From NCBI GenBank assembly GCA_030704665.1, contig JAUYID010000009.1, positions 64,163-128,162 on the forward strand: a DNA stretch of 64,000 bases, given 5' to 3'. The first letter of the stretch is position 1, and each line of letters starts with the position of its first letter. The translations under genes were made by a program, and so were the position numbers. Under the pieces are notes generated by a model. That model saw only the letters and a list, made by a program, of their open reading frames with translations. It was not told the DNA's origin and searched no databases. This document shows, one piece after another, positions 32,113 to 50,754 of this stretch. The stretch is from a bacterium (GTDB taxonomy: Bacteria; Patescibacteriota; Microgenomatia; Woykebacterales; RBG-16-39-9b).

Positions 32113-32156
32113 CCTATAGTATTTGACTTTTCAAGCTAACTCTGCTATACTTTCAG
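32113..32156 (+). promoter_or_regulatory. consensus sigma-70 promoter module P1 (TTGACT-17-TGCTATACT) upstream of high-GC ORF 32274
   Basis: -35 at 32123-32128 and -10 at 32146-32151. The flanks (CCTATAGTA upstream, shared spacer positions) match the modules at 46215 and 49833. Confidence 0.5.
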
Positions 32157-32273
32157 CTAATAAATCTCATTATTTTTCCCTCAATTCTTGTCGCTAAATC
32201 TGCTTTCAAACTGTTTGAATGTAGACAGAGCGGTAAGAGTTTACACCGACCTTGAGTCGGAGGGAGGCGAGAA

Positions 32274-32678
32274 ATGACGTCCGTATTATCCTGGTTGTTT
32301 GGTAGCAAAACCAAGCAAGCACCGGCGGTTCAGCCACAGAGGCCAGAAAACCCTCTGCTGAACCGACTCCGCGGTATCACCCCAGGGGTACAGGAGGTGC
32401 AGAAGTCGCAGCAGTCCGAGGTGGGCAAACAGCGATTCCTCACGGAGTTAGACGAAGTCAAGGAGATCGTGGAGGGCCTCGAAGGCAAGATGATCGAAGC
32501 CGCCAACGAAGGGCGAGACTATATCGACGTCTACAGGTCTAATTCACGAAGCCCAGAGGGTCTGCGAGGTTTGTCTCGTGCCGTCTTCGACTACTTGGAA
32601 CGAGAGGGCTTTAATCCGATCATCTGGGAGACGTATGACACACTCGGATCTTACAACCTAATTGCAGTTAGATGGTGA
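32274..32678 (+). CDS. high-GC hypothetical protein (compositionally foreign cassette)
   Basis: About 60% GC with GC3-rich codons. Strong RBS GGAGGGAGG 6 nt upstream. Hydrophilic 134-aa protein. Confidence 0.5.
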   Translation: MTSVLSWLFGSKTKQAPAVQPQRPENPLLNRLRGITPGVQEVQKSQQSEVGKQRFLTELDEVKEIVEGLEGKMIEAANEGRDYIDVYRSNSRSPEGLRGLSRAVFDYLEREGFNPIIWETYDTLGSYNLIAVRW

Positions 32679-32900
32679 TCACAAAAAGACCACCCGAATT
32701 AGTGCCCGTTAGAAGCACTCTGGTCGCTGCATACCTGTTCCCTAAGAAGAACAAAATGCAGCAAGTCCTTAAGATAATCATAAACTGGTTAATTTAAGAC
32801 AACAAACTAGCTGAAAGGTTAGTTTTTTGTTGGTAAAAAGTTCCAACATTCTTCATAAACACATTTATTTTCAGTATATTTGAAAACGTGCTAAAAGAAC

Positions 32901-33848
32901 CTACTGAAGTAACTCAAAAAGCACAAAAGACAGATAGAAAAGAATTAGAACAACGCCTTCCGCTCGTGTGATTCCTTGCTTAGATTTGGAAAATAGGTAA
33001 AAGAGCACTAATCCCAAAGCTATGAACAAAAAAGTCATTAAGTAGCCGTCTTTGGTCAGAACTTCCCCGTTGTGAAGCAAGGTAAAAACTCCAAAGAGTA
33101 AGGTATTGGCTGCTGCCGAACCAACATAATCGCCAAAAACAATATCTTTTTTACCTAAAATCACTCCTTTTACCGCTAGACTAAGCTCAGGTAAATTAGT
33201 TCCGATTGAAAGGAAAATTAAACTGATCACGAAAGGTGAGATATTAAAGAAGTTAGAGAAGTAAAGAGTCTTGTCCAAGATTATATTACTGGCAAAGAAG
33301 ACAATCACAATCCCACCAATCAGTTTGGCAATGTCGGTTAGGAGAGTCGTGTTTGGTTTTAAGTTATCAACCATGTCCTCAAAGTTCTCGATCACGCCTT
33401 TTCTTCTTTCGACCAAAATGATTAAAAATAGGTAGAGTAGAATCAAAATAACTCCTTCAAGATTGGATACCCGAGCGTCGCTGACAAAGAGTGCCGGAGC
33501 TGCAATGACCGCGAGGGCTATCACTAAATTCCTGCCTTCAAACTGGTGAGTTAGTCTAATCCCGTTATTCAAGACAGCTAGCAGAGGTATTACCAGTAAA
33601 AAGATAACCACGACACCACCAAGCAGGTTCCCGACAAAAATATCAGGCTTTCCCTCTAGGACTGCCCCTAAACCGACTGAAAATTCTGGTATTGAAGTAA
33701 GCAAACCTAAAACAAGAAAAGAAAAGGCGAAAGGAGATAGTTTTACTCGTTTAGAGTATTTATCAACCGCTGAAATTATTAAACCAGCACCAAACCAAAT
33801 TAGACCGAAGGAAGCTAGATAAATGAAAAGGTTTAGGAACGCCATCAA
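32901..33848 (-). CDS. CaCA-family cation/Ca2+ antiporter (YrbG-like sodium/calcium exchanger membrane protein)
   Basis: Two internal repeats of ~5 TM each with alpha-repeat motifs GLGAVLEGKPDIFVGNLLGG and TNLPELSLAVKG. Confidence 0.7.
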   Translation of the reverse strand: MMAFLNLFIYLASFGLIWFGAGLIISAVDKYSKRVKLSPFAFSFLVLGLLTSIPEFSVGLGAVLEGKPDIFVGNLLGGVVVIFLLVIPLLAVLNNGIRLTHQFEGRNLVIALAVIAAPALFVSDARVSNLEGVILILLYLFLIILVERRKGVIENFEDMVDNLKPNTTLLTDIAKLIGGIVIVFFASNIILDKTLYFSNFFNISPFVISLIFLSIGTNLPELSLAVKGVILGKKDIVFGDYVGSAAANTLLFGVFTLLHNGEVLTKDGYLMTFLFIALGLVLFYLFSKSKQGITRAEGVVLILFYLSFVLFELLQ

Positions 33849-34062
33849 CTAGAGTTTATCGTTTTGTTCTTTGTTCCACAAACCAGTAAACCACCAAACC
33901 TAAACGAGGGAGGTAAGACTGCCCTGTTGTTGTTAAAAAGTTCCAACCCTTCGATGAACTCAGGACAGGCATACTCGACCAGGGCGAGATGTTGATCCCC
34001 TTTTTAGCGGTCGCCAGGCGAGGCGTGTCTTTTATATTGACCGGGATGGTAAAATTACCAAG

Positions 34063-34461
34063 ATGAAAAATAGAAATCTATGGTTAGTTGTTGCCGCAGG
34101 AGTAGTTTTGGTTGGCTTGTTCTACTACCTACAACCAAAATCTGAAAACAAAAGTCAAAACCCCAGCAACCAAAGTGAAGAACAAAAGACATCCCCAAAA
34201 ACTTTTGAGTGGACGATACAAGGAAAGAAACTGCTATCAGGGCAAGAAACTCTGAAGGTGACCGAAGGTGAGGAAGTCAGTCTCAAAGTAAGCGCAGACG
34301 AAGCCGACGAGCTCCACCTCCACGGCTATGATGTTGCAGTGGACCTAGAGCCGGGCGAGACAGTAGAACTAAAAGTAAAAGCAGACAAAACTGGTAGGTT
34401 TGTAATTGAGCTTGAGGAAGCCAAAGTTGACCTTGGGGCTTTGGAAGTAAGTCCTAAATGA
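34063..34461 (+). CDS. secreted hypothetical protein, possibly a cupredoxin-like beta-sandwich
   Basis: Signal/TM anchor. Beta-rich region with an ELHLHGYD motif. Translationally coupled (ATGA) to the downstream membrane protein. Confidence 0.45.
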   Translation: MKNRNLWLVVAAGVVLVGLFYYLQPKSENKSQNPSNQSEEQKTSPKTFEWTIQGKKLLSGQETLKVTEGEEVSLKVSADEADELHLHGYDVAVDLEPGETVELKVKADKTGRFVIELEEAKVDLGALEVSPK

Positions 34462-35822
34462 AACTCTCTTTGAGTCTAGCGGTCTTCCTCGCCTTTCTTT
34501 TTCTCCCCTCACCTGTCTTGGCCCACGGCTTTGGTCAAAAATTCAGCCTTCCCCTTCCCTTTTGGATGTATTTATTTGCTTCTGGTGTGGTCGTGGTTGT
34601 CTCTTTTGTTCTTCTCTCCTTTTTTGCTTCGACCAAAAAAGATATCAAACCTGTCAAGACCTGGGCCGCCCTGCCCGGTTGGTTCATCAGCTTGCTTCGT
34701 TACCTGTTTCTAGCCCTATTTCTGCTGCTTCTCGCAACCGGACTTTTTGGTAACCAACTCCCGGGGGACAATTTTAGCGTCATTTTTTTCTGGATTCTTT
34801 GGACAGTGGGTCTTTTCTATCTTTTTTCTTTTCTGGGAAATTTGTGGCAGTATATGAATCCTTGGCAGAGCTTGTTTTTGGGGTTCAAAAAACTCTTTCC
34901 GGACTACCAACCGCCCCTAAAACTAGCCTCCAAAGTTGCTTTGTGGCCAGCGGTCTTATTTTTTGTTGCTTACATCTGGATCCAAAATGTCTTGATAGTT
35001 TTCAACCCGGCGGACATGGCCCTGCTTCTTGGCGCTTACTCTCTGCTTACCCTCTCGGCTGCCTATCTTTTTGGGGAGGAGTGGTTTGCGAAAGGGGAAT
35101 TTTTCACGGTTCTTTATCAGACCGTTTCCACTTTCTCTCCATTTAAATACCAGAGTAAAAAGACTGAGGTCTACACACCGGCAATTCGTCTGACCAACGA
35201 ACTTACTAGAAACTTTAGTTTGGTAGTTTTTATATTGTTTATGCTGGCGGGGGTTACTTTTGACGGAGTCAAAGAAACTCCTACCTATTTTGGAATAAGG
35301 GACTATTTAGCTTCAAACTTCAATTTTCACGTAGCTTCAAGGCTGTTCCACACTATTGCCCTGCTCCTCCTTTTTGTTGGATTTTTTACAGCCTACTATT
35401 TTTTTAACTTTCTAGTCAGCCGTCTCACCAAGCTAGATTTGAAAAAAACCGGACTTTATTTTGTGACTTCCCTGGTCCCGATTGCGGTTGGCTATGAGCT
35501 AGCCCACTTTTCTTCGCTCCTATTGATTCAGGGCCAAGACATAATCAGAGTGGTAGGAGATCCTTTTGCGTTTGGTTGGAACAGTCTTGGAACAGAGGGC
35601 TTTCGACCAATACTTTTTGTGAATGCGAAATTCTTCTGGTATTTTCAGATAGTTAGTATTATTGCCGGACACATCGCCGGTGTCTACGTAGCTCACAAAA
35701 TTGCCCTTTCTTACCTTGGTAAAAGACAAGCCTTTATAAGCCAGTTTCCAATGCTTTTCTTGATGATTCTCTTCACCATTTTCAGCCTCTGGGTGATCTC
35801 TCAGCCACTAGTAGTGCAATAG
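34458..35822 (+). CDS. polytopic integral membrane protein (10+ TM helices), function unknown
   Basis: 454 aa and extremely hydrophobic. Operonic with 34063. Confidence 0.5.
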   Translation: MKLSLSLAVFLAFLFLPSPVLAHGFGQKFSLPLPFWMYLFASGVVVVVSFVLLSFFASTKKDIKPVKTWAALPGWFISLLRYLFLALFLLLLATGLFGNQLPGDNFSVIFFWILWTVGLFYLFSFLGNLWQYMNPWQSLFLGFKKLFPDYQPPLKLASKVALWPAVLFFVAYIWIQNVLIVFNPADMALLLGAYSLLTLSAAYLFGEEWFAKGEFFTVLYQTVSTFSPFKYQSKKTEVYTPAIRLTNELTRNFSLVVFILFMLAGVTFDGVKETPTYFGIRDYLASNFNFHVASRLFHTIALLLLFVGFFTAYYFFNFLVSRLTKLDLKKTGLYFVTSLVPIAVGYELAHFSSLLLIQGQDIIRVVGDPFAFGWNSLGTEGFRPILFVNAKFFWYFQIVSIIAGHIAGVYVAHKIALSYLGKRQAFISQFPMLFLMILFTIFSLWVISQPLVVQ

Positions 35823-35940
35823 CGAGCCATAAAAACTGGGTAAATGACCACACAATTAGGTAATTTTCGCCTGCTATAGTATAATGTCATGAATGAAAGG
35901 AGGTACACCTAGGTTTAATTAAAAAATCTATCAAAAAATT

Positions 35941-36138
35941 ATGAACGGAACAATTAAAACAAAAACTGATAAGGGCTATGGATTTATTGCCCGTGACGGA
36001 GAAGAAAAAGATCTTTTCTTTCACTCAAATGATTTGAGTGGGGTTAGTTTTGACGAGCTTCAACCCGGAGCTGCGGTCAGCTTCGATGTCGTCGACGGTG
36101 ATAAAGGTCCAAGCGCGAAAAACGTAAAACCTGCCTAA
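35941..36138 (+). CDS. cold-shock protein (CspA family)
   Basis: MNGTIKTKTDKGYGFIARDGEEKDLFFH contains the RNP1/RNP2 motifs of cold-shock domains. Preceded by a TGCTATAGTATAAT extended -10 promoter. Confidence 0.85.
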   Translation: MNGTIKTKTDKGYGFIARDGEEKDLFFHSNDLSGVSFDELQPGAAVSFDVVDGDKGPSAKNVKPA

Positions 36139-36242
36139 ATCAGCTACTAAGTTTTACTTAGAACAAAGAGCTAGCCGAAAGGCTAGTTTTTTGTTTGGTT
36201 AGGGTTAAAACTAAAGCGTGCTATTTTTGTTAGAATAAAACA

Positions 36243-36803
36243 ATGGGTCTGGTAGACAAAATAGTTTACGCTGATGACGATACCGAAAAAGTAAGCCTAC
36301 TGTTGCGCCTCCGTCTTCCCTGGCTGCTTGTGGGTCTGGTCGGCGGAACAGCTGCCTCCTTTCTCGTTTCCCGTTTTGAACCAATCTTGACCCAAAATAT
36401 TTCCCTCGCCTTCTTTCTGCCCTTGATAGTTTATATGAGCGATGCAGTCGGGACGCAGACGGAGAACATTTTCGTGCGCAATTTGGGTAAAGGGGAAGCA
36501 AGATTCTTTACTTATCTGATCAAAGAATTTTTTATTGGCGTCGGTTTGGGCTTGATCTTTGCAGTTTTGATCGGACTGGTGACGCACTTTTGGATTGGTT
36601 CGATGGAAATAACCACGACAGTGTCACTGGCTATGTTTCTCACTGTCTCTGTCGCGCCCATTATCGCCTTGATCGTTCCGGAGTTGATCACCAAAGAACA
36701 CCGTGACCCAGCTTTGGGATCAGGGCCGTTTACTACTATTGTTCAAAACATTGTCAGTATCATCATTTATTTTCTCGTTGCTTCTTGGGTTTTTTTCTCT
36801 TAG
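36243..36803 (+). CDS. MgtE-like divalent cation transporter membrane domain protein
   Basis: Five TM helices with the conserved MgtE TM-domain pattern (PWLLVGLVGG...AVGTQTENIF...DPALGSGPFTT). Lacks the N-terminal MgtE-N/CBS domains. Confidence 0.6.
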   Translation: MGLVDKIVYADDDTEKVSLLLRLRLPWLLVGLVGGTAASFLVSRFEPILTQNISLAFFLPLIVYMSDAVGTQTENIFVRNLGKGEARFFTYLIKEFFIGVGLGLIFAVLIGLVTHFWIGSMEITTTVSLAMFLTVSVAPIIALIVPELITKEHRDPALGSGPFTTIVQNIVSIIIYFLVASWVFFS

Positions 36804-38735
36804 CTAAAGAGGATAAGTCAGCAAAGCTTGCAGAGCGGGAAAATTGGTCGAGTACTCACTACTAGTGACCGTAGCAAATTCCACCACGATCGTGATATTG
36901 CCCCGATTTTGGTTCCATTGCTCCATAGTTCCGGTGATAGCGTAGCCAAAAGTCTCAACCCCACCACTACCAGTCCCATAACCAGTCTTGCTCGAGTACC
37001 AGTTGCGGAAGGAAGAAGAAATGCCATCTCCGACCACCACGGAAGCAGCGGAGTGATAGGAAATTGTCCGTACCGGGTCTTCAGAGAGAATTAAATCACG
37101 TAGGGCTCTGCTTTCCGGCTCGGAAAAAGGAGCCGAGCCACCACCGTGCGGGTAGGACTTGTCTTTCCAATAAGTTTGAGCTTGCCAGTCGGCATTCCAG
37201 TTGCGGTTTAAATCCACACCCCGAGCGTTAAAACGACTGTTGGCAGAGACCCCATCGGGATTAGCAAAGGGAACGACAATAAAAGTCCGGTCAGAGGGGA
37301 TCTGGTTTTGATGGTAACGCAAATAGTTGGTCCAGAGTGAGAGCATCGTACCTGTGTTGTCCTCGGTTCCATGCATACTACCGATAAGCAATATTTTTTT
37401 GCTTCCGAAGCCAAAGAAAGTTGCGTTGATGGCTCTACCTTGGACTGAATAGCCGATGGTTTTTGTTCTTTCACCAGTGGTGGTGAAGCTAGAAGAAAAG
37501 CTTTGAGTGCTGTTCTCTCCACCGACACTTTTAATTCCCTTGGTGATGACAACCTTGTAACTACTGAAAAGTTTCAAATTAGTACTGGGATGGAAGGAGA
37601 GGGTGTTTTTGTACCAGGAGAAAGAACCACTTGTCGCCGGACTCAGCGAGAAATGGTTCTGGGCTGACGAATGATCAACCTCTTGATCAAAAGTAACTGA
37701 AATCGAAGAGCCACGGCTGACACCTGACCCCGTTGGCGAAAAACCGATTGCTTTGGCTGGACCGGCGGTATGAAATTTAAAATTAAAATCAGAATCCAAA
37801 TAAGCCCCGTCGTCGGCTTTGAGATCCTCATTTAAAGTTATCGAGTAATTTGTGTTAGTTTTGAGATTTGCTTGCGGGTTGAAAACTACGGTTTTGGAAT
37901 TTTTTAGACTGAACTGACCTGAGGTTGGGGGAGAGATTTTCCAAAGCCTTTCAAAATCTTTAAGAGCTAGGGACTTGTTAAATGCAAAACTAAGATTGCT
38001 TTGTTTGGGTACTATTTTAGAGTTGTTTTTTGGATCAGTCGAAGTAATTTCTAAGGAAGGTAAAGTCGTGAAATCCTGAAAAGAAATTAGCTCCAAGCTA
38101 CCAGGGCTCGTTTTGAGGAAAAGGCTTGTATGATAGGTGGTTCCTTGTTGGAGTTTAGTTTTGGGAGAAACGACCAGAGTCTTGCCCACCCAAGCTTTCT
38201 CAAAGTCAAACTCAGGTTTGGTCAGAAGAATAAAGTCTCCCTTGGTGATTTTTTTGTCCATTGAAAAGCGGAGGACAGCTTTGCTAGAAACCTCTTTAGA
38301 ATTTTTTCCTGGGTAGGCACTCTCCACTTTTGGTAAAGAGCCCGTTCGGAAGCTTTGAGAAAAGTTTCTTTTTAGGCCCAACCAACGGATTTTCAGAGAG
38401 ACGCTGTAGAGAGTGTTGGCCTTGAGTAAATTGTCCGGAACAATGACCAGTTGTTTTTGGATCGGATTCAAACCGTGCAGCCATTTGCTTTTGAAGAGAG
38501 TTTTCGGGGTGATCTCAATCTCGAAATTTTCTTCATCAATAGAGCCGAGGAAAGAAAAGGTAATTTTCCCATCAATTGCTTTGTCGGCTTTCTCAGCTGA
38601 GGCCAGAACTTGGGGAGGAATCAAGTAAAACAACTCAAAGATTAGTAAAAAACCGAGAGTGGAAAAGCTTAAAAAAGAAAAAACCAGGAAGCGCTGTTTT
38701 TTGCTGGCAACGTAAACAAGCAATTTTTGGTACAT
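36804..38735 (-). CDS. M14-family zinc carboxypeptidase with N-terminal Ig-like repeat domains
   Basis: C-terminal catalytic motifs GSMHGTEDNTG, NPDG, NRNW and ISYHS. N-terminal TM anchor then repeated ~90-aa beta-rich modules. Confidence 0.7.
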   Translation of the reverse strand: MYQKLLVYVASKKQRFLVFSFLSFSTLGFLLIFELFYLIPPQVLASAEKADKAIDGKITFSFLGSIDEENFEIEITPKTLFKSKWLHGLNPIQKQLVIVPDNLLKANTLYSVSLKIRWLGLKRNFSQSFRTGSLPKVESAYPGKNSKEVSSKAVLRFSMDKKITKGDFILLTKPEFDFEKAWVGKTLVVSPKTKLQQGTTYHTSLFLKTSPGSLELISFQDFTTLPSLEITSTDPKNNSKIVPKQSNLSFAFNKSLALKDFERLWKISPPTSGQFSLKNSKTVVFNPQANLKTNTNYSITLNEDLKADDGAYLDSDFNFKFHTAGPAKAIGFSPTGSGVSRGSSISVTFDQEVDHSSAQNHFSLSPATSGSFSWYKNTLSFHPSTNLKLFSSYKVVITKGIKSVGGENSTQSFSSSFTTTGERTKTIGYSVQGRAINATFFGFGSKKILLIGSMHGTEDNTGTMLSLWTNYLRYHQNQIPSDRTFIVVPFANPDGVSANSRFNARGVDLNRNWNADWQAQTYWKDKSYPHGGGSAPFSEPESRALRDLILSEDPVRTISYHSAASVVVGDGISSSFRNWYSSKTGYGTGSGGVETFGYAITGTMEQWNQNRGNITIVVEFATVTSSEYSTNFPALQALLTYPL

Positions 38736-38804
38736 GGGGCGGTAAATGAATTTTACCCCGCAGCTACAAACTCTGTCTAGTTTGGAGTATACTTTTTTGA
38801 CACC

Positions 38805-41236: not shown

Positions 41237-41863
41237 ATGAAAAAACTAGAAAAATACACTTCCATGCGCGATCCAGGGAAAACCCCGGAACCTTTTACTA
41301 GCAAAGATATTGATCCAGAAAAGCTAGTTTACGTGGTTCAGAAACATTCAGCTACAGCTCTCCACTACGATTTTCGCCTGGAAATGGGTGGTGTCATGCC
41401 TTCCTGGGCGATTCCCAAAGGTCCTAGTCTCGACAACAGTGTGAAAAGATTAGCCATGCAAACTGAAGACCACCCCCTGGATTACCGACACTTTGAAGGG
41501 GTAATTCCGGCTGGTGAGTATGGTGCTGGACCAGTCATTATTTGGGACGAGGGTTGGTACTTACCTGAGACTGAAATTTCGCCTGGGATCAGGAAAGAAA
41601 TTCGGGATAAAAAAGAAGGGGAGAAAGCCATGCTTGCAGGACTGGAAAAAGGAGAAATAAAATTTTTTCTTTATGGAAAAAAACTAAAGGGCAGTTTTAC
41701 CTTGGTCAAAACTAAGGGCTTCCCACCGGGCAAAGCAGGGAAAAATGCTTGGCTTTTGATCAAGCACAAAGATCACTTTGTGGTTGAAGGCTATGATGCA
41801 GCTGAGTTTAAAGAATCAGCTCTTTCCGGAAAAACTCTTGAGGAAATAAAAGAGAAGGGTTAA
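41237..41863 (+). CDS. LigD-type 3'-phosphoesterase (PE) domain protein, stand-alone
   Basis: The QKHSATALHYDFRLE...PKGPS...EDHPLDY...GEYGAG motif order matches the LigD N-terminal PE domain. Start placed at the internal Met MKKLEKY. Confidence 0.65.
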   Translation: MKKLEKYTSMRDPGKTPEPFTSKDIDPEKLVYVVQKHSATALHYDFRLEMGGVMPSWAIPKGPSLDNSVKRLAMQTEDHPLDYRHFEGVIPAGEYGAGPVIIWDEGWYLPETEISPGIRKEIRDKKEGEKAMLAGLEKGEIKFFLYGKKLKGSFTLVKTKGFPPGKAGKNAWLLIKHKDHFVVEGYDAAEFKESALSGKTLEEIKEKG

Positions 41864-41958: not shown

Positions 41959-42693
41959 ATGCTTGAGATCAAAGATTTACACGTTTCAACTCAAAAGAAA
42001 GAAATTCTGCGCGGAATTAGCCTAAAAATAAAACCAGGCGAAATCCACGCCCTGATGGGGCCAAACGGTTCGGGAAAATCCTCTCTTTCTATGGCTCTGA
42101 TGGGGCATCCTCAATATCAAATTACCAAAGGTGAGGTTATTCTCGATGGACAAGACATAAGCGCTCTGAGCGTTGACAAAAGAGCCAAAGCAGGCTTGTT
42201 TCTAGCCATGCAATATCCAGTTGCGGTCGCCGGGGTTTCGATCAACAATTTCATGCGTTCAGCCTACAAAAATCTCAAAGATCCGGGGGTTAAAGCTCTT
42301 GAGATTCAAAATAAAGTCAAAAACGAACTGAACCAGCTTAAACTAGACGAGAAGTTTATCAGCCGAGCCGTGAACGAAGGCTTTTCCGGAGGAGAGAAGA
42401 AGAAGTTGGAAACTCTGCAACTAACAATTCTGGAACCAAAATATGCAATTCTTGATGAGACGGATTCAGGACTTGATGTAGACGCTCTCAAGATTGTTTC
42501 CAAAGGAGTGATGAAGGCAAAAGAAAAAGACCAAAAACTAGGGATCCTATTAATTACTCATTATCAAAGAATATTACGGTACATTCAGCCAGATTTTGTT
42601 CACATTTTAGTGGATGGAAAGATCGTCAAAAGTGGGGATAAAGACCTAGCATTAGAAATAGAAGAGAAAGGTTATCAGGAGGTGTCATCCTGA
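41959..42693 (+). CDS. sufC: Fe-S cluster assembly ATPase SufC
   Basis: Walker A GPNGSGKS. ABC signature FSGGEKKK. Walker B ILDETDSGLD. Confidence 0.9.
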   Translation: MLEIKDLHVSTQKKEILRGISLKIKPGEIHALMGPNGSGKSSLSMALMGHPQYQITKGEVILDGQDISALSVDKRAKAGLFLAMQYPVAVAGVSINNFMRSAYKNLKDPGVKALEIQNKVKNELNQLKLDEKFISRAVNEGFSGGEKKKLETLQLTILEPKYAILDETDSGLDVDALKIVSKGVMKAKEKDQKLGILLITHYQRILRYIQPDFVHILVDGKIVKSGDKDLALEIEEKGYQEVSS

Positions 42694-42749
42694 GCGACTA
42701 GCGAAGGATCTCTGAGATTCTTCACTTCGTTCAGAATGACAGAACTAAA

Positions 42750-44162: not shown

Positions 44163-44468
44163 TTGACAGATCGGATTTTTTTGTTGCACAATATATTTAT
44201 GAAGAGATTAAAGATCTATCTTTTGTTTTTAGTGATTGCTTTGGTGATAACGTTCCTGACTAGTTTTTACAAGTATCAATTACCGGCTACAAGCGTCTTC
44301 AGTGGAAGTAATGGCAGCAACATCGACATTTTAGTAGCTGGATTTCCACTACATTTCCTTTCTTACACGAAAGAGATTTTTCTAGGGAATTTGGTAATCG
44401 ACATTTTCTTTTGGTTTTCGCTTGTAACCATGGCTGCAAAGGCCTGGGATCTATCCAAAGAGAAATAA
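44163..44468 (+). CDS. small membrane protein within the suf cluster
   Basis: 101 aa with two TM helices. Start abuts the sufB stop. Confidence 0.4.
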   Translation: MTDRIFLLHNIFMKRLKIYLLFLVIALVITFLTSFYKYQLPATSVFSGSNGSNIDILVAGFPLHFLSYTKEIFLGNLVIDIFFWFSLVTMAAKAWDLSKEK

Positions 44469-44518
44469 ATCACTCAAACTTCTTCCCAAGAATTCAAAAG
44501 TAAAGTAGAATAGCCTTC

Positions 44519-45097
44519 ATGAATGCGATTAATCTAATTCTGCAAGAAGGCCAGGAAAAAGTTTTACCTTTGGTTTTTATGACGGGTTCTGAAGAAATTG
44601 AAGTGAACGCGCAGCTCGTTGGTCGGGGAGCGAGACTGGATGTGATTGGTGCCTTTTTTCTCACCAATTCTGACGAAGTTAAAGCTACGATCAACATTAC
44701 CCATGCTGCGCCCGACACCTATTCCAACACGTTAATTAAATCCGTTCTAAACGAAAAGGCGCAGGGCGGTTTCTATGGTTTGGTGAAGATAAAACGCGGA
44801 GCAAAAAATACCGATACCTATTTTCGTGAGGACGCCTTACTACTTTCCAAAAACGCGAAAGCGGAAGCAATTCCTTCTCTAGAGATTGATGAGAACGAGG
44901 TCAAGGCGGGCCACGCCTCGACCGTCGGTCCAGTTGACCCAGAAAGTATTTTTTACCTACAGAGCCGGGGGATCCCGGCGGATCAGGCCAAGAGACTGCT
45001 CGTCCAAGGCTATCTCGGCGCAGTTGCGGACAAACTACCTGAGAAAGAAAAAGCCCAACTTTTCACTTTTCTCGAAAAAGAGTTTAGAATTAGTTAA
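44519..45097 (+). CDS. sufD: short-form SufD (SufB/SufD-family) protein
   Basis: The C-terminal GHASTVGPVDPESIFYLQSRGI motif is shared with SufB/SufD. 192-aa short form. Confidence 0.7.
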   Translation: MNAINLILQEGQEKVLPLVFMTGSEEIEVNAQLVGRGARLDVIGAFFLTNSDEVKATINITHAAPDTYSNTLIKSVLNEKAQGGFYGLVKIKRGAKNTDTYFREDALLLSKNAKAEAIPSLEIDENEVKAGHASTVGPVDPESIFYLQSRGIPADQAKRLLVQGYLGAVADKLPEKEKAQLFTFLEKEFRIS

Positions 45098-45195
45098 AGC
45101 TTGTCATCCTGAGGCAAAGCCGAAGGATCTCCTTTGCTAAACCTGGGAGAAGCAGATTCTTCGCTGATCGCTCAGAATGACATTAGGGGAATTAA

Positions 45196-45507
45196 ATGTC
45201 TGAATTTCAAAAAGTCGCAAAACTAGATGATGTGCACGATGGTCAAATTACCTTGGCCAAGATCGGCAAGGAACAGATAGCCCTTTATCGTTTGGGCAAC
45301 GAAGTCTTGGCGACGACCAATATTTGCACCCACGAATACTGTGAGCTTGATCAAAACCACAATATTGAAGGTGAAGAGGTAGAGTGCACTTGTCACGGCA
45401 GTAAGTTCAAAATTCGCACCGGGGAAAACACTTCACCACCCGCTGCCGAGCCATTACCTATTTTTAAAACTAAAGTTGAGAACGGGGAGGTCTTTGTTGA
45501 AATATGA
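45196..45507 (+). CDS. Rieske [2Fe-2S] domain protein
   Basis: CTHEYCEL...CTCHGSKF, i.e. the CxH-x15-17-CxxH Rieske ligands. Confidence 0.75.
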   Translation: MSEFQKVAKLDDVHDGQITLAKIGKEQIALYRLGNEVLATTNICTHEYCELDQNHNIEGEEVECTCHGSKFKIRTGENTSPPAAEPLPIFKTKVENGEVFVEI

Positions 45508-45647
45508 GTAAGATTGTCGGTTTTGCAGGGTCGTTAAGAGAAAAGTCCTACAATAAAATTTTTGAAACTTCAGACCACTGTCTTCAGGTTCAAAAATCTT
45601 GCGCTTTAGCTATAGATCCCTATAGACTAAAGCTTAAAATGGCTTAG
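45504..45647 (+). pseudogene. N-terminal fragment duplicated from the downstream FMN reductase gene
   Basis: The encoded MSKIVGFAGSLREKSYNK parallels MKIIGFAGSLRSASYNK of the intact gene at 45650, then diverges to a stop after 47 codons. Confidence 0.4.
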
Positions 45648-45649
45648 TT

Positions 45650-46201
45650 ATGAAAATAATCGGATTTGCCGGGAGTCTACGCTCCGCTTCTTACAATAAA
45701 ATGGCACTTAAACTTGTTCTGGAAAAGGCGGAAGAAGACGGAGCTGAGACCGAGTTTATTGATCTGAAGCCGCTTAACATTCCTCTTTATGATGGTGATT
45801 TGGAAAAGGAAATTCAACTTCCTGACGGAATCAAATTGCTGCGAGAGAAAATCGAAGCTGCGGACGGGTTGATTATCGCAACTCCGGAGTACAATCACTC
45901 TCTTCCTGGTGTGCTTAAGAATACCCTTGATTGGATCTCCCGAACAAAATATTTTCCTGATATTTTAACTGGAAAAAAGGTCGCCCTCTTTGGGGCTTCC
46001 GATGGGAACTTTGCCACCGTGAGAGCGCAAATTGCCTTTTTTCCAATTGCCAATACCCTTGGCCTCAACTTGATGCCCTCAAAAACTTATGTGGGCAACG
46101 TTGAAGAAGTTTTTGATGAAAACGGAAAGTGTCTTGATGCAAAAGTGGAAGAAAGACTCGCCAAATTCGCGCAAAACTTCGTCAAATTTATCCAAAATTA
46201 A
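45650..46201 (+). CDS. NADPH-dependent FMN reductase-family oxidoreductase
   Basis: Flavodoxin-like fold motifs GFAGSLRSASYN and LIIATPEYNHSLPGVLKNTLDW. Confidence 0.75.
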   Translation: MKIIGFAGSLRSASYNKMALKLVLEKAEEDGAETEFIDLKPLNIPLYDGDLEKEIQLPDGIKLLREKIEAADGLIIATPEYNHSLPGVLKNTLDWISRTKYFPDILTGKKVALFGASDGNFATVRAQIAFFPIANTLGLNLMPSKTYVGNVEEVFDENGKCLDAKVEERLAKFAQNFVKFIQN

Positions 46202-46214
46202 TCAAGCAAAGGTC

Positions 46215-46262
46215 TCATAGTCATTGACTTTTGAGGCTAAGTTTGCTATAATGTTTCACATT
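46215..46262 (+). promoter_or_regulatory. consensus sigma-70 promoter module P2 (TTGACT-17-TGCTATAAT) upstream of high-GC ORF 46379
   Basis: -35 at 46224-46229 and -10 at 46247-46252. Homologous beyond the hexamers to P1 and P3. Confidence 0.5.
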
Positions 46263-46378
46263 AATTCTCCAAGCAGGCAAAGGCCCTGATTTCCTTACTT
46301 TTCCACACCTGAAGTTAATTAGATTGAATTCAGCTGTGGGGAAACAAGGAAGTCGAGTGCAACCTCAAGGAGGAGATC

Positions 46379-46774
46379 TTGAAGACCATCGTTATCGCCG
46401 CGCTCGCTTTGTTCGCGTTTCTTGGGTTTCTGGGCTACTCGTGGCTCCAGGGTTCCAAGGTCGAAAAGAGCGTGCCCGCAGAGGTGGCTGTCCAGCGCTT
46501 CTACGAGCACCAGGCGAAGTACCGTGCCAGACAGGAAGGGCCGGAGGCCTATCTAGACTATGGAGCGCGGCTAGCCTCAGCTTTGAAGGACGGCCAGCTC
46601 GCTAGCCTCAGCCAGACGGACAAAGACAAGCTTGACGCTGAGCTCTGGAAGATGCTCAACGATCTGGCCAGCGACACACTCAGCGAGACCCAGTGGTTGG
46701 TGTACCGCAGTGTACAAGACAACCTGCAAAGTTACTATGACACCCATCCTCGGGGGTCGGCCTCATCGAGATAA
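46379..46774 (+). CDS. high-GC membrane-anchored hypothetical protein (compositionally foreign cassette)
   Basis: About 58% GC. TTG start with AAGGAGG RBS. N-terminal TM helix then a soluble domain. Followed by a GC-rich 11-bp-stem hairpin (46788-46822). Confidence 0.5.
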   Translation: MKTIVIAALALFAFLGFLGYSWLQGSKVEKSVPAEVAVQRFYEHQAKYRARQEGPEAYLDYGARLASALKDGQLASLSQTDKDKLDAELWKMLNDLASDTLSETQWLVYRSVQDNLQSYYDTHPRGSASSR

Positions 46775-46877
46775 CAGTGAAAGTGATGGTTGAGCGCTTC
46801 GTGGACCCACCCCAGCCACGAAGCGCCACACCTCTAAAACTTGTGAAAGTCTCTTTCAGAGAGTAGAATAGCCACGC

Positions 46878-48206
46878 GTGAAAGCTCAAGTCCAAGTTAC
46901 AGCAAAAAAAGACCTCTTTAAATACCGGAAAGATTTTCCAATTCTAGGCCGTAAAGTACATGGTAAAGACCTGATTTATTTCGACAACGCTGCGACCAGT
47001 CAAAAACCCCAAGCCGTTATTGATGCGGTTTCCAACTACTACAAAACCAGCAACGCCAATGTTCACCGCGGTGTGCACAAACTTTCTGAAGAAGCGACTG
47101 AAGCTTATGAGCAGGCTAGAAAGAAGGTAGCTGACTTTATCAAGGGAGGAGATTCTTCCCAAATCGTTTTCACCCGCAACGCGACCGAAGCAATTAATCT
47201 GGTAGCTTACGCTTGGGGGAGAGACAATATTGAAGCTAACGACGAAATCTTACTCACTCAAATGGAGCACCACTCAAACCTAGTTCCCTGGCAAATTCTA
47301 GCTAAAGAAAAAGGGGCAAAGCTGAAATTCATCCCGATCAACGAGCAGGGTGAATTAAGAATTAAGAATGAAGAATTAAAAATTTACTTGACGCCAAAGA
47401 CAAAATTAATCTCTTTAACTCATGTTTCCAACGTCCTCGGTACCGTCAACCCTGTGAAGGACGTGATTAACGAAGCTAAAAACTTTAATCCTGAGATTAA
47501 AATTCTAGTCGATGGAGCTCAGGCAGTACCACATCTTCCAGTCTCGGTGCAGAGCCTAGGAGTCGATTTTTACGCTTTCACTGGCCACAAAATGCTTGGT
47601 CCAACCGGAATTGGGGTGCTCTGGGCAAAAAGGGAACTACTTGAAAAAATGAGACCGTTTCAGGCTGGTGGGGAGATGATTCTTGACGTTGGTTGGGAAG
47701 AGTCCAGCTACAATTACATTCCCTGGAAGTTTGAGGCGGGCACCCCCAATATTGCTGGGGCGGTTGGTCTGGGAGCTGCCGTAGACTATTTAAGCAAAGT
47801 TGGTATGAAAAATATCCGAGAACACGAAAAGGACCTAACTGAGTATGCTTTAAGAAAACTTGAATCTGTTGCCAATCTAGAAATTTATGGACCGAGAAAG
47901 CTTGATCGCAAAACGGGAGTCATCTCTTTCAACATTGTTAAAGAGGGTAAGGTAAACCCCTCACTTCGTTCAGCGACCGTATTTCCTGACGGAAAAGTGG
48001 TCATTCATCCCCATGATTTAGCTTCGATACTCGACGCTCATGGCATTGCTGTGCGCAGCGGGCACCACTGCGCAGCACCCTTGATGAAAGTTTTGGGCAT
48101 TCCAGCTGCGGCCAGAATCAGCTTTCATCTTTACAACACCAAAGAAGAAATTGACCAACTTGTGCCCGCACTTGAGAAAGCGAAGCAAATTTTTAAGATT
48201 AATTAA
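46878..48206 (+). CDS. sufS: cysteine desulfurase SufS
   Basis: Class V aminotransferase with PLP-lysine region (FYAFTGHKMLGPTGIG) and the HHCAAPL active-site Cys loop. Confidence 0.9.
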   Translation: MKAQVQVTAKKDLFKYRKDFPILGRKVHGKDLIYFDNAATSQKPQAVIDAVSNYYKTSNANVHRGVHKLSEEATEAYEQARKKVADFIKGGDSSQIVFTRNATEAINLVAYAWGRDNIEANDEILLTQMEHHSNLVPWQILAKEKGAKLKFIPINEQGELRIKNEELKIYLTPKTKLISLTHVSNVLGTVNPVKDVINEAKNFNPEIKILVDGAQAVPHLPVSVQSLGVDFYAFTGHKMLGPTGIGVLWAKRELLEKMRPFQAGGEMILDVGWEESSYNYIPWKFEAGTPNIAGAVGLGAAVDYLSKVGMKNIREHEKDLTEYALRKLESVANLEIYGPRKLDRKTGVISFNIVKEGKVNPSLRSATVFPDGKVVIHPHDLASILDAHGIAVRSGHHCAAPLMKVLGIPAAARISFHLYNTKEEIDQLVPALEKAKQIFKIN

Positions 48207-48207
48207 A

Positions 48208-48576
48208 ATGGAAGACCAACTCTACCGAGAAGTTATACTCGAACGTTTTTCCAATCCAGTCAATCAAGGGATGCTTGAAAAGCCGGACTTGGAGGCTGTT
48301 TTGCTCAACCCACTCTGTGGTGATGAAGTGCGTTTGCAAGTTAAGCTAAACGGAACCAAGGTAAGTCAAGCCCGCTTTTCGGGAAACGGTTGCGCCATCT
48401 CCCAGGTTTCAGCCTCACTTCTAGCAGAGTATTTGGAAGGTAAAAATTTAAGCGCAGCAAAAAAGATAACCCCAGACAAACTTCTTTCTCTGCTCGAGAT
48501 CAAACCCAGCCCCGCTCGTTTGAGTTGCGCTTTGCTTTCTCTGGAAACCCTAAAGAAAGCCCTGCAACCTAGTTAA
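48208..48576 (+). CDS. sufU: SufU/IscU-like Fe-S scaffold protein
   Basis: Conserved Cys motifs NPLCGDEV and GNGCAIS. Start at ATG 48208, just after the sufS stop. Confidence 0.75.
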   Translation: MEDQLYREVILERFSNPVNQGMLEKPDLEAVLLNPLCGDEVRLQVKLNGTKVSQARFSGNGCAISQVSASLLAEYLEGKNLSAAKKITPDKLLSLLEIKPSPARLSCALLSLETLKKALQPS

Positions 48577-48603
48577 TTATCTTCTGCTATACTAAAAATA
48601 GCT

Positions 48604-49839
48604 ATGGAACAGGTTAAATACTTAATTATTGGTGGCGGTATTGCCGGTACGAACGCAGCTGAAATGATCCGTCGTCTCGATCCTTCAGGATCAATCCTCA
48701 TTGTCACAGAAGAAAAAGACCTACTTTACTCACGAGTCATGCTACCTGATTTTCTGCGTGACGAAGTTCCCTACGAAAAGATTTTTCTGCGCAAGGCGCA
48801 GGATTATCAAAAAAACCAGATTGGGCTGAAGCTAAACGAGCCGGTTTCGAAGGTTAACGCAAAGGAAAAGAAAATCACTCTAGCCTCTGGAGAGGAGATA
48901 GAGGCGGAGAAAATTCTGGTCGCCTCGGGAGGAAAAGTGAACAAACTGAAAAACCCAGGATCAGACTTAGCTGGAGTCAGCTATTTGCGCACCACTGAGG
49001 ATGCGCAACAAGCAAAAGATTGGCTCCGAACCTCGCAAGAAGCAGTTGTGGTTGGAGGAGGTTTCATTGGAATTGAATTTGCCAAAACTTTTCGCCAGCA
49101 CAATTTGCAGACAAAAGCCTTGATCATGGAGAAGTATTTTTGGGAGGCAGTGGTGGGTGAAAATTCTGGTAAATTGCTAACCGAGCTACTTCAAGAAAAT
49201 GGAATTGAAGTTGTCGCTGGGGTCCAAGTTGGCCAATTTATTGGCCAAAACCGTTTAGAAAAAGTCAAACTGAACAACAACCAGGAGATCCCAGCCCAAA
49301 TTGCCGGAGTGGGGATTGGCATTCATTTGGATTTGGATCACTTGCAAGACTCAGGTCTCAAGATTAACAAAGGAGTAGTCACAGACCAGTATTTGCAAAC
49401 TTCGGCCCCAGATATTTGGGCTGCCGGTGATATTGCTGAATTTTATGACCCTATTTTCGATAAGTACCATACTCTAGGCAACTGGACCAATTCTTCTGCT
49501 CAAGGCCGGGTCGTAGGTGCGAATATGGTGGGTCAGAAGCAAGTTTTTGAGACCTTAAGTACATACTCAATTGATGTTTTTGGCTCAAGCTTTACTTTTT
49601 TGGGTGATCCGGCCGTGGATGAGCAAACTGAAGTAGTTGAACGTGGTAGCCTGACGGATAAGAAATTGGGTAGAATTTTGCTTCGCAATGACGTTGTTGT
49701 TGGTGCTTCTCTCATCAATCTTAATCATGACCGAGCGGCTTTGAACAAACTTATTAAAGAAAAGACGAAGGTAGCTACTTCAAAAGAACAATTAAAAGAC
49801 CCAAAATTCGATCTTCTGAGCTTACTCAACACCCTATAG
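48604..49839 (+). CDS. FAD-dependent pyridine nucleotide-disulfide oxidoreductase
   Basis: N-terminal GGGIAG FAD Rossmann. Second VVGGGFIGIE NAD(P) Rossmann. AAGDIAE FAD-binding motif. Confidence 0.75.
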   Translation: MEQVKYLIIGGGIAGTNAAEMIRRLDPSGSILIVTEEKDLLYSRVMLPDFLRDEVPYEKIFLRKAQDYQKNQIGLKLNEPVSKVNAKEKKITLASGEEIEAEKILVASGGKVNKLKNPGSDLAGVSYLRTTEDAQQAKDWLRTSQEAVVVGGGFIGIEFAKTFRQHNLQTKALIMEKYFWEAVVGENSGKLLTELLQENGIEVVAGVQVGQFIGQNRLEKVKLNNNQEIPAQIAGVGIGIHLDLDHLQDSGLKINKGVVTDQYLQTSAPDIWAAGDIAEFYDPIFDKYHTLGNWTNSSAQGRVVGANMVGQKQVFETLSTYSIDVFGSSFTFLGDPAVDEQTEVVERGSLTDKKLGRILLRNDVVVGASLINLNHDRAALNKLIKEKTKVATSKEQLKDPKFDLLSLLNTL

Positions 49840-49881
49840 TACTTGACTTTTAACCCTATTTTTGCTATAATATTTCACATT
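49833..49881 (+). promoter_or_regulatory. consensus sigma-70 promoter module P3 (TTGACT-17-TGCTATAAT) upstream of high-GC ORF 49927
   Basis: -35 at 49843-49848 and -10 at 49866-49871. Followed by the leader hairpin AAGTCG..CGACTT plus T-tract and the RBS AAGGAGGG. Confidence 0.5.
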
Positions 49882-49926
49882 GAAGTCGGCAAACGTCGAC
49901 TTTTTGTTTCCTTAAGGAGGGAGCAC

Positions 49927-50634
49927 ATGCGATCGTTGGTCATCAAAGTGACCGCCCCGCTGGCGATCATCATGACGCTAGTGTGGTTGACTTTTTCGGC
50001 ATCCTCGGCCTTGGCTTGGGAAGTCGAAGTCGAGTGTCGCGACGGTTTCGTCGGCGGCAGCATCCATGTCCCGGAGGCGAGTAGCTTCGACATTTATGTC
50101 GAGGATCACGTCCCTGGTAAGGGCTGGCTGGAGGTTCCAGGCAGTCGCGATGAGATTACCGTCGCCGAGGGTAAGGAGGGTTTCGTGCCTTTCGGACCAC
50201 TTGACGTTCGGGCTCATCGTGATGGTGCTGATCTTCTCAAGATCGCTCAGACAGCGGACGATACTCCCTACGAGCCGTTCGACGTTTGTGACGCACCTGA
50301 ACCGACCTCAACTACAGTCCCACCGACGAGTACTCCGAGCCCGACCTTCACCGCGACGGCTACGAGAGCTCCGAGGACGGCCACGAAGACCGCAGTCCCT
50401 CCGACCGCGACTTCAACGCCTTGGGGAAGTGTGGGTGAGCCGGGTTTGTCGATCACTCCCGAGCCAACGTCCACGACCGCACCAGCACCGCCAGCCATCA
50501 AGCTGCCGGCCGCAGGAACAGGGGCTGATCGAGTAGCGAAGAGGCAAGTCGTACCCTACATGGTCATCGGCTTCGCCGGCATCTTCCTTCTCATGGCCGG
50601 GTCACTGCGACGCAACAACCGACGGCGTCGTTAA
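49927..50634 (+). CDS. high-GC secreted Thr/Pro-rich protein with a C-terminal LPAAG-type cell-wall sorting signal
   Basis: Signal peptide, globular N-domain and T/P-rich linker. C-terminus is LPAAGTG + a hydrophobic stretch + RRNNRRRR, the tripartite sortase-substrate architecture. About 62% GC. Confidence 0.55.
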   Translation: MRSLVIKVTAPLAIIMTLVWLTFSASSALAWEVEVECRDGFVGGSIHVPEASSFDIYVEDHVPGKGWLEVPGSRDEITVAEGKEGFVPFGPLDVRAHRDGADLLKIAQTADDTPYEPFDVCDAPEPTSTTVPPTSTPSPTFTATATRAPRTATKTAVPPTATSTPWGSVGEPGLSITPEPTSTTAPAPPAIKLPAAGTGADRVAKRQVVPYMVIGFAGIFLLMAGSLRRNNRRRR

Positions 50635-50660
50635 GCGAAATTATCCTTGAGTCGGTTTTG

Positions 50661-50716
50661 ATCGGGTCGTCCACTGTAAGCCTCTTTCTAAGAGCAAGTG
50701 GACGGCCCGATTTTCG
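50661..50716 (+). terminator. long GC-rich two-level hairpin plus T-tract, 3' of the high-GC cassette
   Basis: ATCGGGTCGTCCACT...AGTGGACGGCCCGAT outer stem (one G:U). Inner CTCTT/AAGAG hairpin. Followed by TTTTCG. Confidence 0.45.
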
Positions 50717-50754
50717 TATTTGACAGCTTTCCCCCCAACGTTTAGGATAGATTT

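Follow-up and report, generated by a model that had tools for sequence, protein, structure and literature searches.

The window analysed here is a stretch of 64,000 nt (positions 64,163 to 128,162) of contig JAUYID010000009.1 from a patescibacterial genome (GCA_030704665.1). It has a GC content of 43.6%, and GC at third codon positions (GC3) exceeds 0.55 in only four of its approximately 75 open reading frames (ORFs), as compared with approximately 0.26-0.53 for the native genes. Three of these four GC-rich ORFs, termed ORF1, ORF2 and ORF3, are preceded by three copies of one promoter module, and 3/3 modules precede members of the four-ORF set (hypergeometric P = 6e-5). The fourth, ORF4, is preceded by a promoter of another kind. 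The three modules had been noticed in a reading made from the letters alone (the sequence-only reading), which missed ORF4 and considered the arrangement consistent with repeated capture of foreign genes behind a portable promoter, or with a site-specific cassette-insertion system.

Promoter modules and the genes that follow them

The pattern TTGACTTTT-N11-TGCTATAMT matches the plus strand at 32123-32151, 46224-46252 and 49843-49871, and no further match is found in the window on either strand when up to three mismatches are allowed. The fuller pattern CCTATAGT-N2-TTGACTTTT-N11-TGCTATAMT also has these three copies as its sole matches in 64 kb. Matches to the module pattern in shuffled sequence number 0.18 on average, and 0/100 shuffles reach three. 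The three elements starting their -35 at 32123, 46224 and 49843, their 17-nt spacers and their TGn extended -10 are as the sequence-only reading described them, but its N13 distance gives 0 matches and is a miscount of N11. Module 1 (32113-32157, plus strand) consists of the -45 element CCTATAGT, a -35 hexamer TTGACT (32123-32128), a 17-nt spacer, TGC (32143-32145) and a -10 hexamer TATACT (32146-32151). Module 2 (46215-46258, plus strand) has ATAGT at 46217-46221, a -35 at 46224-46229, TG at 46244-46245 and a -10 TATAAT at 46247-46252, and module 3 (49833-49877, plus strand) has ATAGT at 49836-49840, a -35 at 49843-49848, TG at 49863-49864 and a -10 TATAAT at 49866-49871. The TAG stop codon of the upstream Pyr_redox gene (49837-49839) falls within the CCTATAGT element of module 3. 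The hexamers of all three modules agree with the consensus at 10-11 of 12 positions, and the promoters themselves have a GC content of 27-36%. Judged by a -35 near TTGACA, a spacer of 16-18 nt, a -10 near TATAAT and a TG that precedes the -10 by one base, the modules fit a sigma-70-type promoter with an extended -10, and are predicted to be active.

The similarity of the modules was compared with that of promoter-like sites in general. The window contains 73 promoter-like sites with a 17-nt spacer, which give 2,628 pairs to be compared at 37 non-hexamer positions. The three module pairs have 27, 23 and 22 of these positions in common and are the top three of all pairs, while the remaining 2,625 pairs have a mean of 9.7, a standard deviation (sd) of 2.7 and a maximum of 20. 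The module pairs are therefore 4.6-6.4 sd above the others, and the claim that the similarity extends beyond the hexamers is borne out. Besides the -45 element CCTATAGT, the modules have in common TTT behind the -35, A..CTA within the spacer and T.TGC ahead of the -10. The module family is the top direct-repeat family within 31-51.5 kb, and its copies inside the window are 62-72% identical over 53 nt. It is the likeness of the spacers and leaders that argues for descent of the modules.

Each module is followed by a leader (116, 120 and 49 nt for modules 1, 2 and 3, respectively), a GGAGG-type Shine-Dalgarno (SD) sequence, the ORF and a GC-rich hairpin, and each unit is predicted to be monocistronic and self-contained. 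The GC content steps up near the SD and down near the 3' hairpin, and the sharp bounds given to the GC3-rich ORF behind each copy in the sequence-only reading are confirmed. The leaders fold more stably than shuffled sequences (z = -5.0, -4.1 and -4.4 for leaders 1, 2 and 3), and in every fold prediction the SD is paired to an upstream C/U-rich tract. Leader 1 (approximately 116 nt, 32158-32273, plus strand) is predicted to form a long, sequence-invariant hairpin, with the C/U-rich tract paired to the SD GGAGGGAGG (-40.1 kcal/mol). Leader 2 (approximately 120 nt, 46259-46378, plus strand) also forms a long predicted hairpin, in which UUCUCC pairs with the SD GGAGGA (-41.9 kcal/mol). Leader 3 (49878-49926, plus strand) consists of a terminator-like hairpin with a U-run (49882-49903) and, behind it, a small hairpin within which the SD lies. 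ORF4 has its own promoter and a leader of approximately 220 nt (15173-15422, minus strand). This promoter (TTGACA at 15422-15417, a 17-nt spacer and TATAAA) is near the consensus and differs from the module, and its leader contains a hairpin with a U-run at 15240-15224. The hairpins with U-runs of leader 3 and the ORF4 leader were both called by a terminator scan. The leaders have no match in Rfam at the gathering score, and only chance-level matches at E <= 1. Control of translation by the leaders may be suggested from these folds.

The hairpins at the 3' ends of the units were read by eye. A hairpin with a T-run between ORF1 and the convergent Na/Ca-exchanger gene (32789-32831) was not called by the terminator scan and is probably a bidirectional terminator; a second copy, with 79% identity, lies at 36153-36195. 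ORF2 is followed by a GC-rich hairpin (GAGCGCTTCGTGG...CCACGAAGCGC, 46792-46827, plus strand), which is without a T-run and was not called either, and ORF3 by a hairpin (CGGGTCGTCCACT...AGTGGACGGCCCG) with a T-run (50663-50719, plus strand), the loop of which exceeds the length that the scan detects. At three intergenic sites (32789-32831, 36153-36195 and, as an inverted partner, 31317-31348) there are terminator-like hairpins that are 75-79% alike and are flanked on each side by T/A runs. Terminators, like promoters, seem to come in reused modules.

The coding sequences of the GC-rich ORFs are mutually unrelated, as the sequence-only reading stated. Its estimate of 58-62% GC holds for ORF2 (0.58) and ORF3 (0.60), but not for ORF1 (0.54). 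ORF1 (32274-32678, plus strand, GC3 0.64) encodes a 134-aa protein without a hydrophobic segment, listed at NCBI as hypothetical protein Q8P13_00695. ORF2 (46379-46774, plus strand, GC3 0.73) encodes a 131-aa protein with an N-terminal hydrophobic anchor or signal. It starts with TTG 6 nt after AGGAGG, its reading frame is backed by GC3 > GC1 > GC2, and it is called with a later start in Logan. ORF3 (49927-50634, plus strand, GC3 0.60-0.63, NCBI Q8P13_00800) encodes a 235-aa protein composed of a signal peptide (hydrophobic residues 1-31), a domain of approximately 90 aa with two conserved Cys residues, a Pro/Thr-rich linker, LPAAG, a transmembrane (TM) segment (residues 206-227) and an RRNNRRRR tail. 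These are the features of LPXTG-type sortase substrates, and the syntenic orthologue P0002 bears LPRTG, so that ORF3 looks like a sortase substrate, although no curated LPXTG-anchor model of NCBIfam matches it at E <= 0.1. ORF4 (14537-15172, minus strand, GC3 0.65-0.70) encodes a 211-aa protein with 3-4 hydrophobic segments and a C-terminal domain (GNGGYLGQD..FPLWTL..AGG..RR.AK) resembling a sorting signal. Of the four GC-rich ORFs, three (ORF2, ORF3 and ORF4) encode envelope proteins, and two of them look like sortase substrates. Searches of Pfam, NCBIfam, PADLOC and PHROGs assigned none of the four ORFs to a family at significant scores. With the ORF1 alignment as query, the sequences of the PDB gave nothing below E = 0.1, and exact-protein look-ups of ORF1 and ORF2 gave no match.

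A class F-like sortase gene (13107-13889, minus strand, GC 0.52) is identified by Pfam PF04203 at E = 3e-10 and by the NCBIfam class_F_sortase model at E = 2e-12, the latter below the family cut-off. Its product is the probable processing enzyme for ORF3 and ORF4. The gene lies between tRNA-Arg and a NUDIX gene, and the N-terminal half of its product is Pro/Thr-rich. Relatives L129 and L133 have no sortase at this position, and the sortase gene may itself have been acquired. The last 40 residues of ORF4 are 62-76% identical to the C-termini of many proteins, including large surface proteins, and one of these matches is a 545-aa surface protein that adjoins three sortases on a contig of 66% GC. 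This type of C-terminus (..(P)DTGNGGYLGQD..FP(M/L)WTL.AL.LGS..LVAGG...RR.(A/G)K; window 14537-14660) ends many otherwise unrelated proteins (P0010, P0014-P0019; L132), and no curated NCBIfam model matches it.

Units in related genomes

The host is a groundwater bacterium with a small genome. Its relatives were recovered from the 0.1-um filter fractions of groundwater at Hainich, and T4SS_pilin and DUF5657 genes are present in them. Bacteria of the candidate phyla radiation have been investigated in the Hainich wells (PMC8672522). ORF3 has one relative among 5.8 billion proteins, namely P0002 (38% identity), encoded in L004 (GCA_964360785.1) among the same neighbours (Pyr_redox, response regulator, FeS_assembly_P and CvpA/CAP), with Pyr_redox on one side and the response regulator on the other. 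The GC3 of this orthologue is 0.67, as compared with 0.29-0.41 for its neighbours, and its upstream region contains ATAGGAATTGACTTTT-N11-TGTTATAGT and a leader hairpin with a U-run, as leader 3 does. A search of genome contigs with the Pyr_redox protein gave only an unrelated match of 22% identity. Full-length relatives of ORF4 are 33-37% identical to it, and the two that could be placed (L129 and L133) adjoin tRNA-Ser, NUDIX, SmpB, DnaG and RpoD, as in the window. Their GC3 values are 0.66 and 0.67, as compared with 0.23-0.44 for their neighbours, and promoters resembling that of ORF4 lie at the same place beside tRNA-Ser. Relatives of ORF1 are 78% and 69% identical to it; the orthologue in L007 directly follows tRNA-Asn, and its promoter, leader and 3' flank are nearly identical to those in the window. 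Only ORF2 is without relatives, since a search of the 5.8 billion proteins matched its own Logan copy alone. Absence from the syntenic site in relatives is thus found for ORF2 only, and the units are present for ORF1 (L007), ORF3 (L004) and ORF4 (L129, L133). Since related genomes have orthologues of most units at syntenic sites, with a GC excess of the same kind, the units are a long-standing, lineage-wide gene class and not recent insertions in this genome. In L129, a 72-aa ORF (3199-3417, minus strand) with GC3 of 0.63, as compared with 0.23-0.30 for its neighbours, adjoins a toxin-antitoxin pair and a Fic gene, and may be a further member of the class.

The codon usage of the GC-rich ORFs is shifted evenly to G/C-ending codons and their amino acid composition to A, G, P, R, V and T. 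Both are intermediate between those of native genes and those of an organism of 66% GC. For example, the synonymous fraction of AAG is 0.75, as compared with 0.27 in native genes, and that of ATC is 0.79, as compared with 0.34. The shift looks like a compositional regime rather than a choice of particular optimal codons, because all G/C-ending codons and the amino acid composition shift. Translational selection was considered and rejected, as all G/C-ending codons rise jointly and nothing unusual is seen in the small genes at 2.5-5.3 kb.

Native proteins of the window and of the Hainich relative are 49-89% identical. The four-fold degenerate sites of the native genes are essentially saturated (identity 0.33, as compared with 0.27 expected), and the GC class at 989 such sites is correlated by only 0.06 +- 0.03 between the two genomes. 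From this correlation, a two-state model limits the retention of any starting composition to approximately 0.25-0.35 per lineage. According to this model, a gene acquired with GC3 of 0.90 at the split would now have GC3 of no more than 0.55-0.60 in the genome of the window and no more than 0.49-0.55 in that of the relative, and the values observed (0.63-0.70 and 0.66-0.67, respectively) exceed these bounds. The four-fold sites of ORF3 and its orthologue are correlated by -0.04 +- 0.14, yet their GC contents are 0.67 and 0.58. For ORF1, polarised changes on the window and L007 branches are 8 and 10 from AT to GC and 8 and 6 from GC to AT, which are small counts. Because silent sites are saturated, neutral amelioration should have brought GC3 below the values observed. 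It is concluded that a gene-specific force keeps these ORFs GC-rich; this force may be one of those considered below.

Reuse of the promoter and leader is indicated by metagenome contigs, of which the informative ones among the matches listed are L037, L069, L081, L087/L097, L108 and L111. Module 1 and its leader align with L108 over approximately 150 nt; when L007 is added to make a three-way alignment, the mean column identity is 83%, and the core of the hairpin hardly varies. In L108, the promoter-leader is followed by a non-homologous 86-aa GC-rich ORF. L108 and L008 have a common 3' hairpin and different ORFs, that of L008 being an orthologue of ORF1. The spacer of module 3 is identical to that of L081 at 30/36 positions, is similar to that of L108, and is closer to these than to that of the L004 orthologue; the ORFs that follow in L081 and L108 differ from ORF3. 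Contig L037 (the 258-kb contig Ga0209323_10000002), a relative by its tRNA-Ser and dnaG genes, has between them a unit (567-1225) consisting of the module, a leader of approximately 290 nt and a GC-rich DUF7736/phrog_15963 ORF, and the window has no unit at that site. This ORF is the only cassette ORF tied to a family also seen in phages. The low-GC contigs L069, L087/L097 and L111 likewise have the module, a long hairpin leader, an SD and a GC-rich orphan ORF. These comparisons give some support to a promoter-leader that is portable. The proposal of the sequence-only reading, foreign genes captured behind a portable promoter, is partly right, in that the composition is alien and the promoter-leader is reused. 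It is wrong on timing and mechanism: repeated capture as a series of recent events is not supported, since ORF1, ORF3 and ORF4 have orthologues with the same GC3 excess and a similar promoter, and no insertion machinery is evident.

The four-fold identity of the ORF1 unit between the window and L007 is 0.60, and that of rpoD, dnaG and an RNaseH-like gene is 0.29-0.36, which represents saturation. This low silent divergence suggests that the ORF1 unit was exchanged more recently than the genome split, or that its silent sites are constrained. The whole unit including its non-coding flanks (window 32040-32800, L007 3410-4175) is far better conserved than the silent sites of housekeeping genes. 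The first 25 or so codons of ORF1 are almost unalignable between the two.

An 11-kb low-GC island (21096-32053, 36-40% GC, GC3 approximately 0.3) is integrated at tRNA-Asn (21021-21095) and lies between this tRNA gene and the ORF1 unit. Its genes include those for a large serine recombinase (21081-22769, minus strand), for a type III methyltransferase (25554-27239) and restriction subunit (27239-29521), for an OLD-family ATPase-nuclease (29565-31298, minus strand) and for an HTH protein. On its right side, a 16-nt repeat of the 3' end of the tRNA (CCTACCCCCGGAGCCA, 32054-32069) forms the boundary. The island is missing in L007, where tRNA-Asn and the ORF1 unit are approximately 130 nt apart. 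The large serine recombinase belongs to this separate low-GC defence island and not to the GC-rich units. Elsewhere in the window, a 30-nt element (TGTCATCCTGAG...CGAAGGATCTC) is located at or just after stop codons of the suf cluster (42683-42712, 45102-45131 and, more weakly, 41397-41426). ARAGORN identifies tRNA-Arg with anticodon GCG and tRNA-Ile with anticodon TAT (12747-12823 and 54136-54211, respectively), and a pair of tRNA-Met genes, 57 nt from each other, occupies opposite strands (57029-57235).

Explanations for the promoter-tagged GC-rich genes

The reading favoured here, with a probability of about one half, is that homologous promoter copies head old, GC-rich single-gene units, in which the promoter-leader is reused, the ORF turns over, and the GC content is held by a gene-specific force. 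The three elements would be homologous copies of one strong sigma-70-type promoter, with the -45 CCTATAGT, a -35 followed by TTT, a T.TG extended -10 and a near-consensus -10. Each copy would drive a unit consisting of a structured SD-pairing leader, a strong SD, a short family-less GC-rich ORF and a hairpin. The promoter-leader would have been reused over evolution and the ORF behind it replaced, presumably by ordinary recombination between related genomes or loci without a dedicated recombinase. The GC-richness probably began with genes from GC-rich bacteria, so that the ORFs may be foreign in origin, and it would now be kept off the genome equilibrium either by selection on mRNA or codons, or by GC-biased repair tied to frequent recombination. 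A foreign link is indicated by the intermediate codon and amino acid usage and by ORF4, the last 40 residues of which match proteins of an organism of 66% GC. The unit anatomy, module homology, synteny, GC3 persistence and portability of the promoter-leader are shown by the data; promoter activity, translational control through the leader, an origin outside the lineage and the force behind the high GC content are inferred.

Several points weigh against this reading. The association of the modules with high GC3 was assessed in 64 kb of a 938-kb contig and in fragments of relatives. A looser relative of the module (CCTATAGT-N3-TTGACA-18-TGG-TACAAT, 56326-56363, minus strand) precedes a native xerC/D-like gene of ordinary GC (55432-56304, minus strand), which owes its identity to an L004 orthologue carrying PF00589. 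The sequence-only reading, which missed this promoter (CCTATAGT-N3-TTGACA-18-TGnTACAAT), had itself proposed that many further copies before ordinary native genes would speak against it; one such relative, alike in the -45 and -35, is a weak instance of this. The generic motif ATAG-N3-TTGACTTTT-N11-TGNTATANT is present in at least 120 metagenome stretches, mostly on unrelated contigs with ordinary downstream genes. Because the generic motif is common and the looser copy precedes the xerC/D-like gene, part of the module similarity may be a promoter dialect and not descent. The structure of leader 1 is also predicted for L007 and L108, but its stems are invariant, with only one compensatory pair, so that covariation is unable to back it. 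Promoter strength and leader function are predictions only. The amelioration bound comes from a simple two-state model and approximately 55 sites per GC-rich gene, and the evidence for ORF turnover from a few short contigs. Finally, no GC-rich donor for ORF1, ORF2 or ORF3 was found, as these have no matches outside the clade. Many marine and other metagenome contigs carry a near-identical ATAGTTCTTGACTTTT...TG.TATAAT before short ordinary ORFs (L042, L043, L048, L050, L057-L059, L063, L064, L068, L072 and others); these may represent a separate widespread promoter family, possibly one of phages. A phage origin of the units is unsupported, as viral contigs contain no relatives of ORF1, ORF2 or ORF3, no leader 1 and no strict module.

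The units may instead form a native regulon, although this is rather unlikely. The promoters would then be alike through a common regulator or sigma factor and a need for strength, without being copies, and GC-richness would be an adaptation of highly expressed envelope mRNAs (for example, for resistance to an AU-specific RNase, or for control of folding or translation), with neither foreign origin nor portability. A selected stationary composition predicts what is observed in the syntenic orthologues, which keep high GC3 past silent saturation, and the AT-to-GC and GC-to-AT changes of ORF1 are about equal. From their appearance, the leaders and SDs would suit regulated expression at a high level, and the -45 CCTATAGT is also found before a native gene. 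A regulon accounts poorly, however, for the spacer of module 3, which is unlike that of its L004 orthologue and matches those of promoters of unrelated ORFs, and for the same 150-nt promoter-leader before non-homologous ORFs. The orphan status of ORF2, the joint shift of amino acids and all G/C-ending codons, the ordinary GC3 (0.42-0.50) of putative ribosomal-protein-sized genes at 2.5-5.3 kb, and a silent divergence of the ORF1 unit far below that of the surrounding genome also oppose it. A bolder form of the favoured reading is unlikely. It would make the units a recombinase-free integron-like system of Patescibacteria, in which a pool of GC-rich cassettes is exchanged between related ultra-small bacteria by DNA uptake and homologous recombination with the promoter-leader and 3' hairpin as homology arms, and in which the GC content is actively maintained by GC-biased conversion during this frequent recombination or by mRNA selection and is not a fading foreign trace.

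The cassette alternative of the sequence-only reading, namely that foreign cassettes were inserted recently by an integron-like or other recombinase system that supplies or targets the module, is quite improbable. The sharp GC boundaries, the alien codon usage, the restriction of ORF2 to this genome and the location of unit 1 only 60 nt from the right end of an island encoding a large serine recombinase are in its favour. But relatives with silent-saturated native genes have three of the four GC-rich ORFs in synteny, and the L007 ORF1 unit follows tRNA-Asn without the island, which makes the island a later, separate insertion. Neither direct nor inverted repeats flank the units, no integrase adjoins any of them, the 3' hairpins have no common core or attC-like site, and the units are scattered with a promoter each, unlike integron arrays. 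The recent-cassette reading is thus largely refuted for ORF1, ORF3 and ORF4, and no sign of a site-specific cassette system is found at the units. Coincidence, in which near-consensus promoters look alike anyway and the ORFs are GC-rich through their Ala, Gly, Pro and Thr content, is very improbable. Much of the common sequence is indeed promoter grammar (-35, T.TG extended -10 and -10), the generic motif is common in metagenomes, and the Pro/Thr-rich linker of ORF3 lifts GC1 and GC2. Nevertheless, this reading is contradicted by the comparisons of codon choice and of module pairs: GC3 and synonymous choice are shifted in a way that amino acid content does not explain, and the non-hexamer identity is far outside the distribution of 2,625 pairs. 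The probability of the association is also low, and the pairing of module and GC-rich ORF recurs in relatives. Least probable by far is an artefact of assembly or binning, by which foreign GC-rich fragments were stitched into the contig. The source is a metagenome-assembled genome, but Logan contigs L001 and L003 independently carry units 3 and 2, respectively, with native flanks, the architecture recurs in the ENA, NCBI and Logan assemblies of relatives, and each unit lies exactly in an intergenic gap with both flanks native. The units are not an assembly artefact, because independent assemblies reproduce the junctions.

Comparison with known systems and implications

Leaders that hide the ribosome-binding site (RBS), such as RNA thermometers and translational riboswitches, and the 5' stabiliser hairpins of ompA and aprE are known. 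The leaders of the units likewise have a long stable 5' hairpin and an anti-SD tract paired to the SD, and two of them carry an attenuator-like hairpin with a U-run. In leader 1, both the sequence and the shape of the hairpin are conserved, unlike in the known RBS-hiding leaders. The ORF4-type signal (..GNGGYLGQD..FPxWTL..) corresponds to no sorting signal identified.

The units resemble integron cassettes in that they are short single-ORF units of unrelated function, and the idea of ORFs being swapped behind a fixed promoter is common to both. Integron cassettes, however, are promoterless, carry attC sites, and are arranged in arrays beside intI and attI with a single Pc promoter in common, whereas the units are dispersed (14 kb and 3.6 kb apart), each with its own promoter, leader and hairpin. 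No IntI, attI or Pc was found beside the units, the neighbours of which are genes for FMN reductase, SufS, Pyr_redox, a response regulator and the Na/Ca exchanger, and the only tyrosine-recombinase-like gene is the xerC/D-like gene, 5 kb away. An integron or attC system was therefore rejected on unit anatomy.

According to the model attributed to Lawrence and Ochman, horizontally acquired genes reportedly form genomic islets and are then ameliorated. The units resemble such islets, which are likewise single genes with sharp compositional borders, alien codons and no homologues between native operons, and the GC-rich ORFs show the deviating composition and codon usage expected of them. They differ from islets in being syntenic across silent-saturated genomes, in not being ameliorated, and in having neither mobility genes nor att sites. 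As a rule, ORFans are short and rich in AT (PMC3514957), and the units deviate in the unusual direction, to high GC.

The closest described concept is the putative mobile promoter (PMP) of 'Promoter propagation in prokaryotes' (Matus-Garcia et al. 2012, PMC3488235), a route by which new or silent genes can be wired into expression and whose families can span genomes. PMPs are defined as 50 nt or more at an identity of 80% or more, upstream of coding sequences that are not homologous, within one genome (PMC3488235). The window copies are long enough but not identical enough to fall under this definition, and between genomes only module 1 with its leader, as compared with L108, reaches these values. 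PMPs are not reported to be tied to one compositional gene class, whereas every module copy here precedes a family-less GC-rich ORF, and the module of the window includes a structured leader, unlike a PMP. In the literature searched, there is no description of GC-rich promoter-tagged genes in Patescibacteria, nor of a persistent GC excess of promoter-tagged orphan genes.

Single genes that remain 15-25 points above genome GC after silent saturation do not fit the model of acquisition followed by decay. If their composition is actively maintained, the units would be a natural test case for what determines bacterial GC content, which may be selection (PMC2936529) or else biased gene conversion (PMC4450053). 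Should the promoter-leader be an expression tag that can be reused, it would show by what route bacteria that have tiny genomes and few regulators bring new envelope proteins into high expression. It would also point to candidates for abundant surface proteins, sortase substrates among them, in organisms presumed to live attached to other cells, and the module with its leader would then be a candidate expression tool for Patescibacteria.

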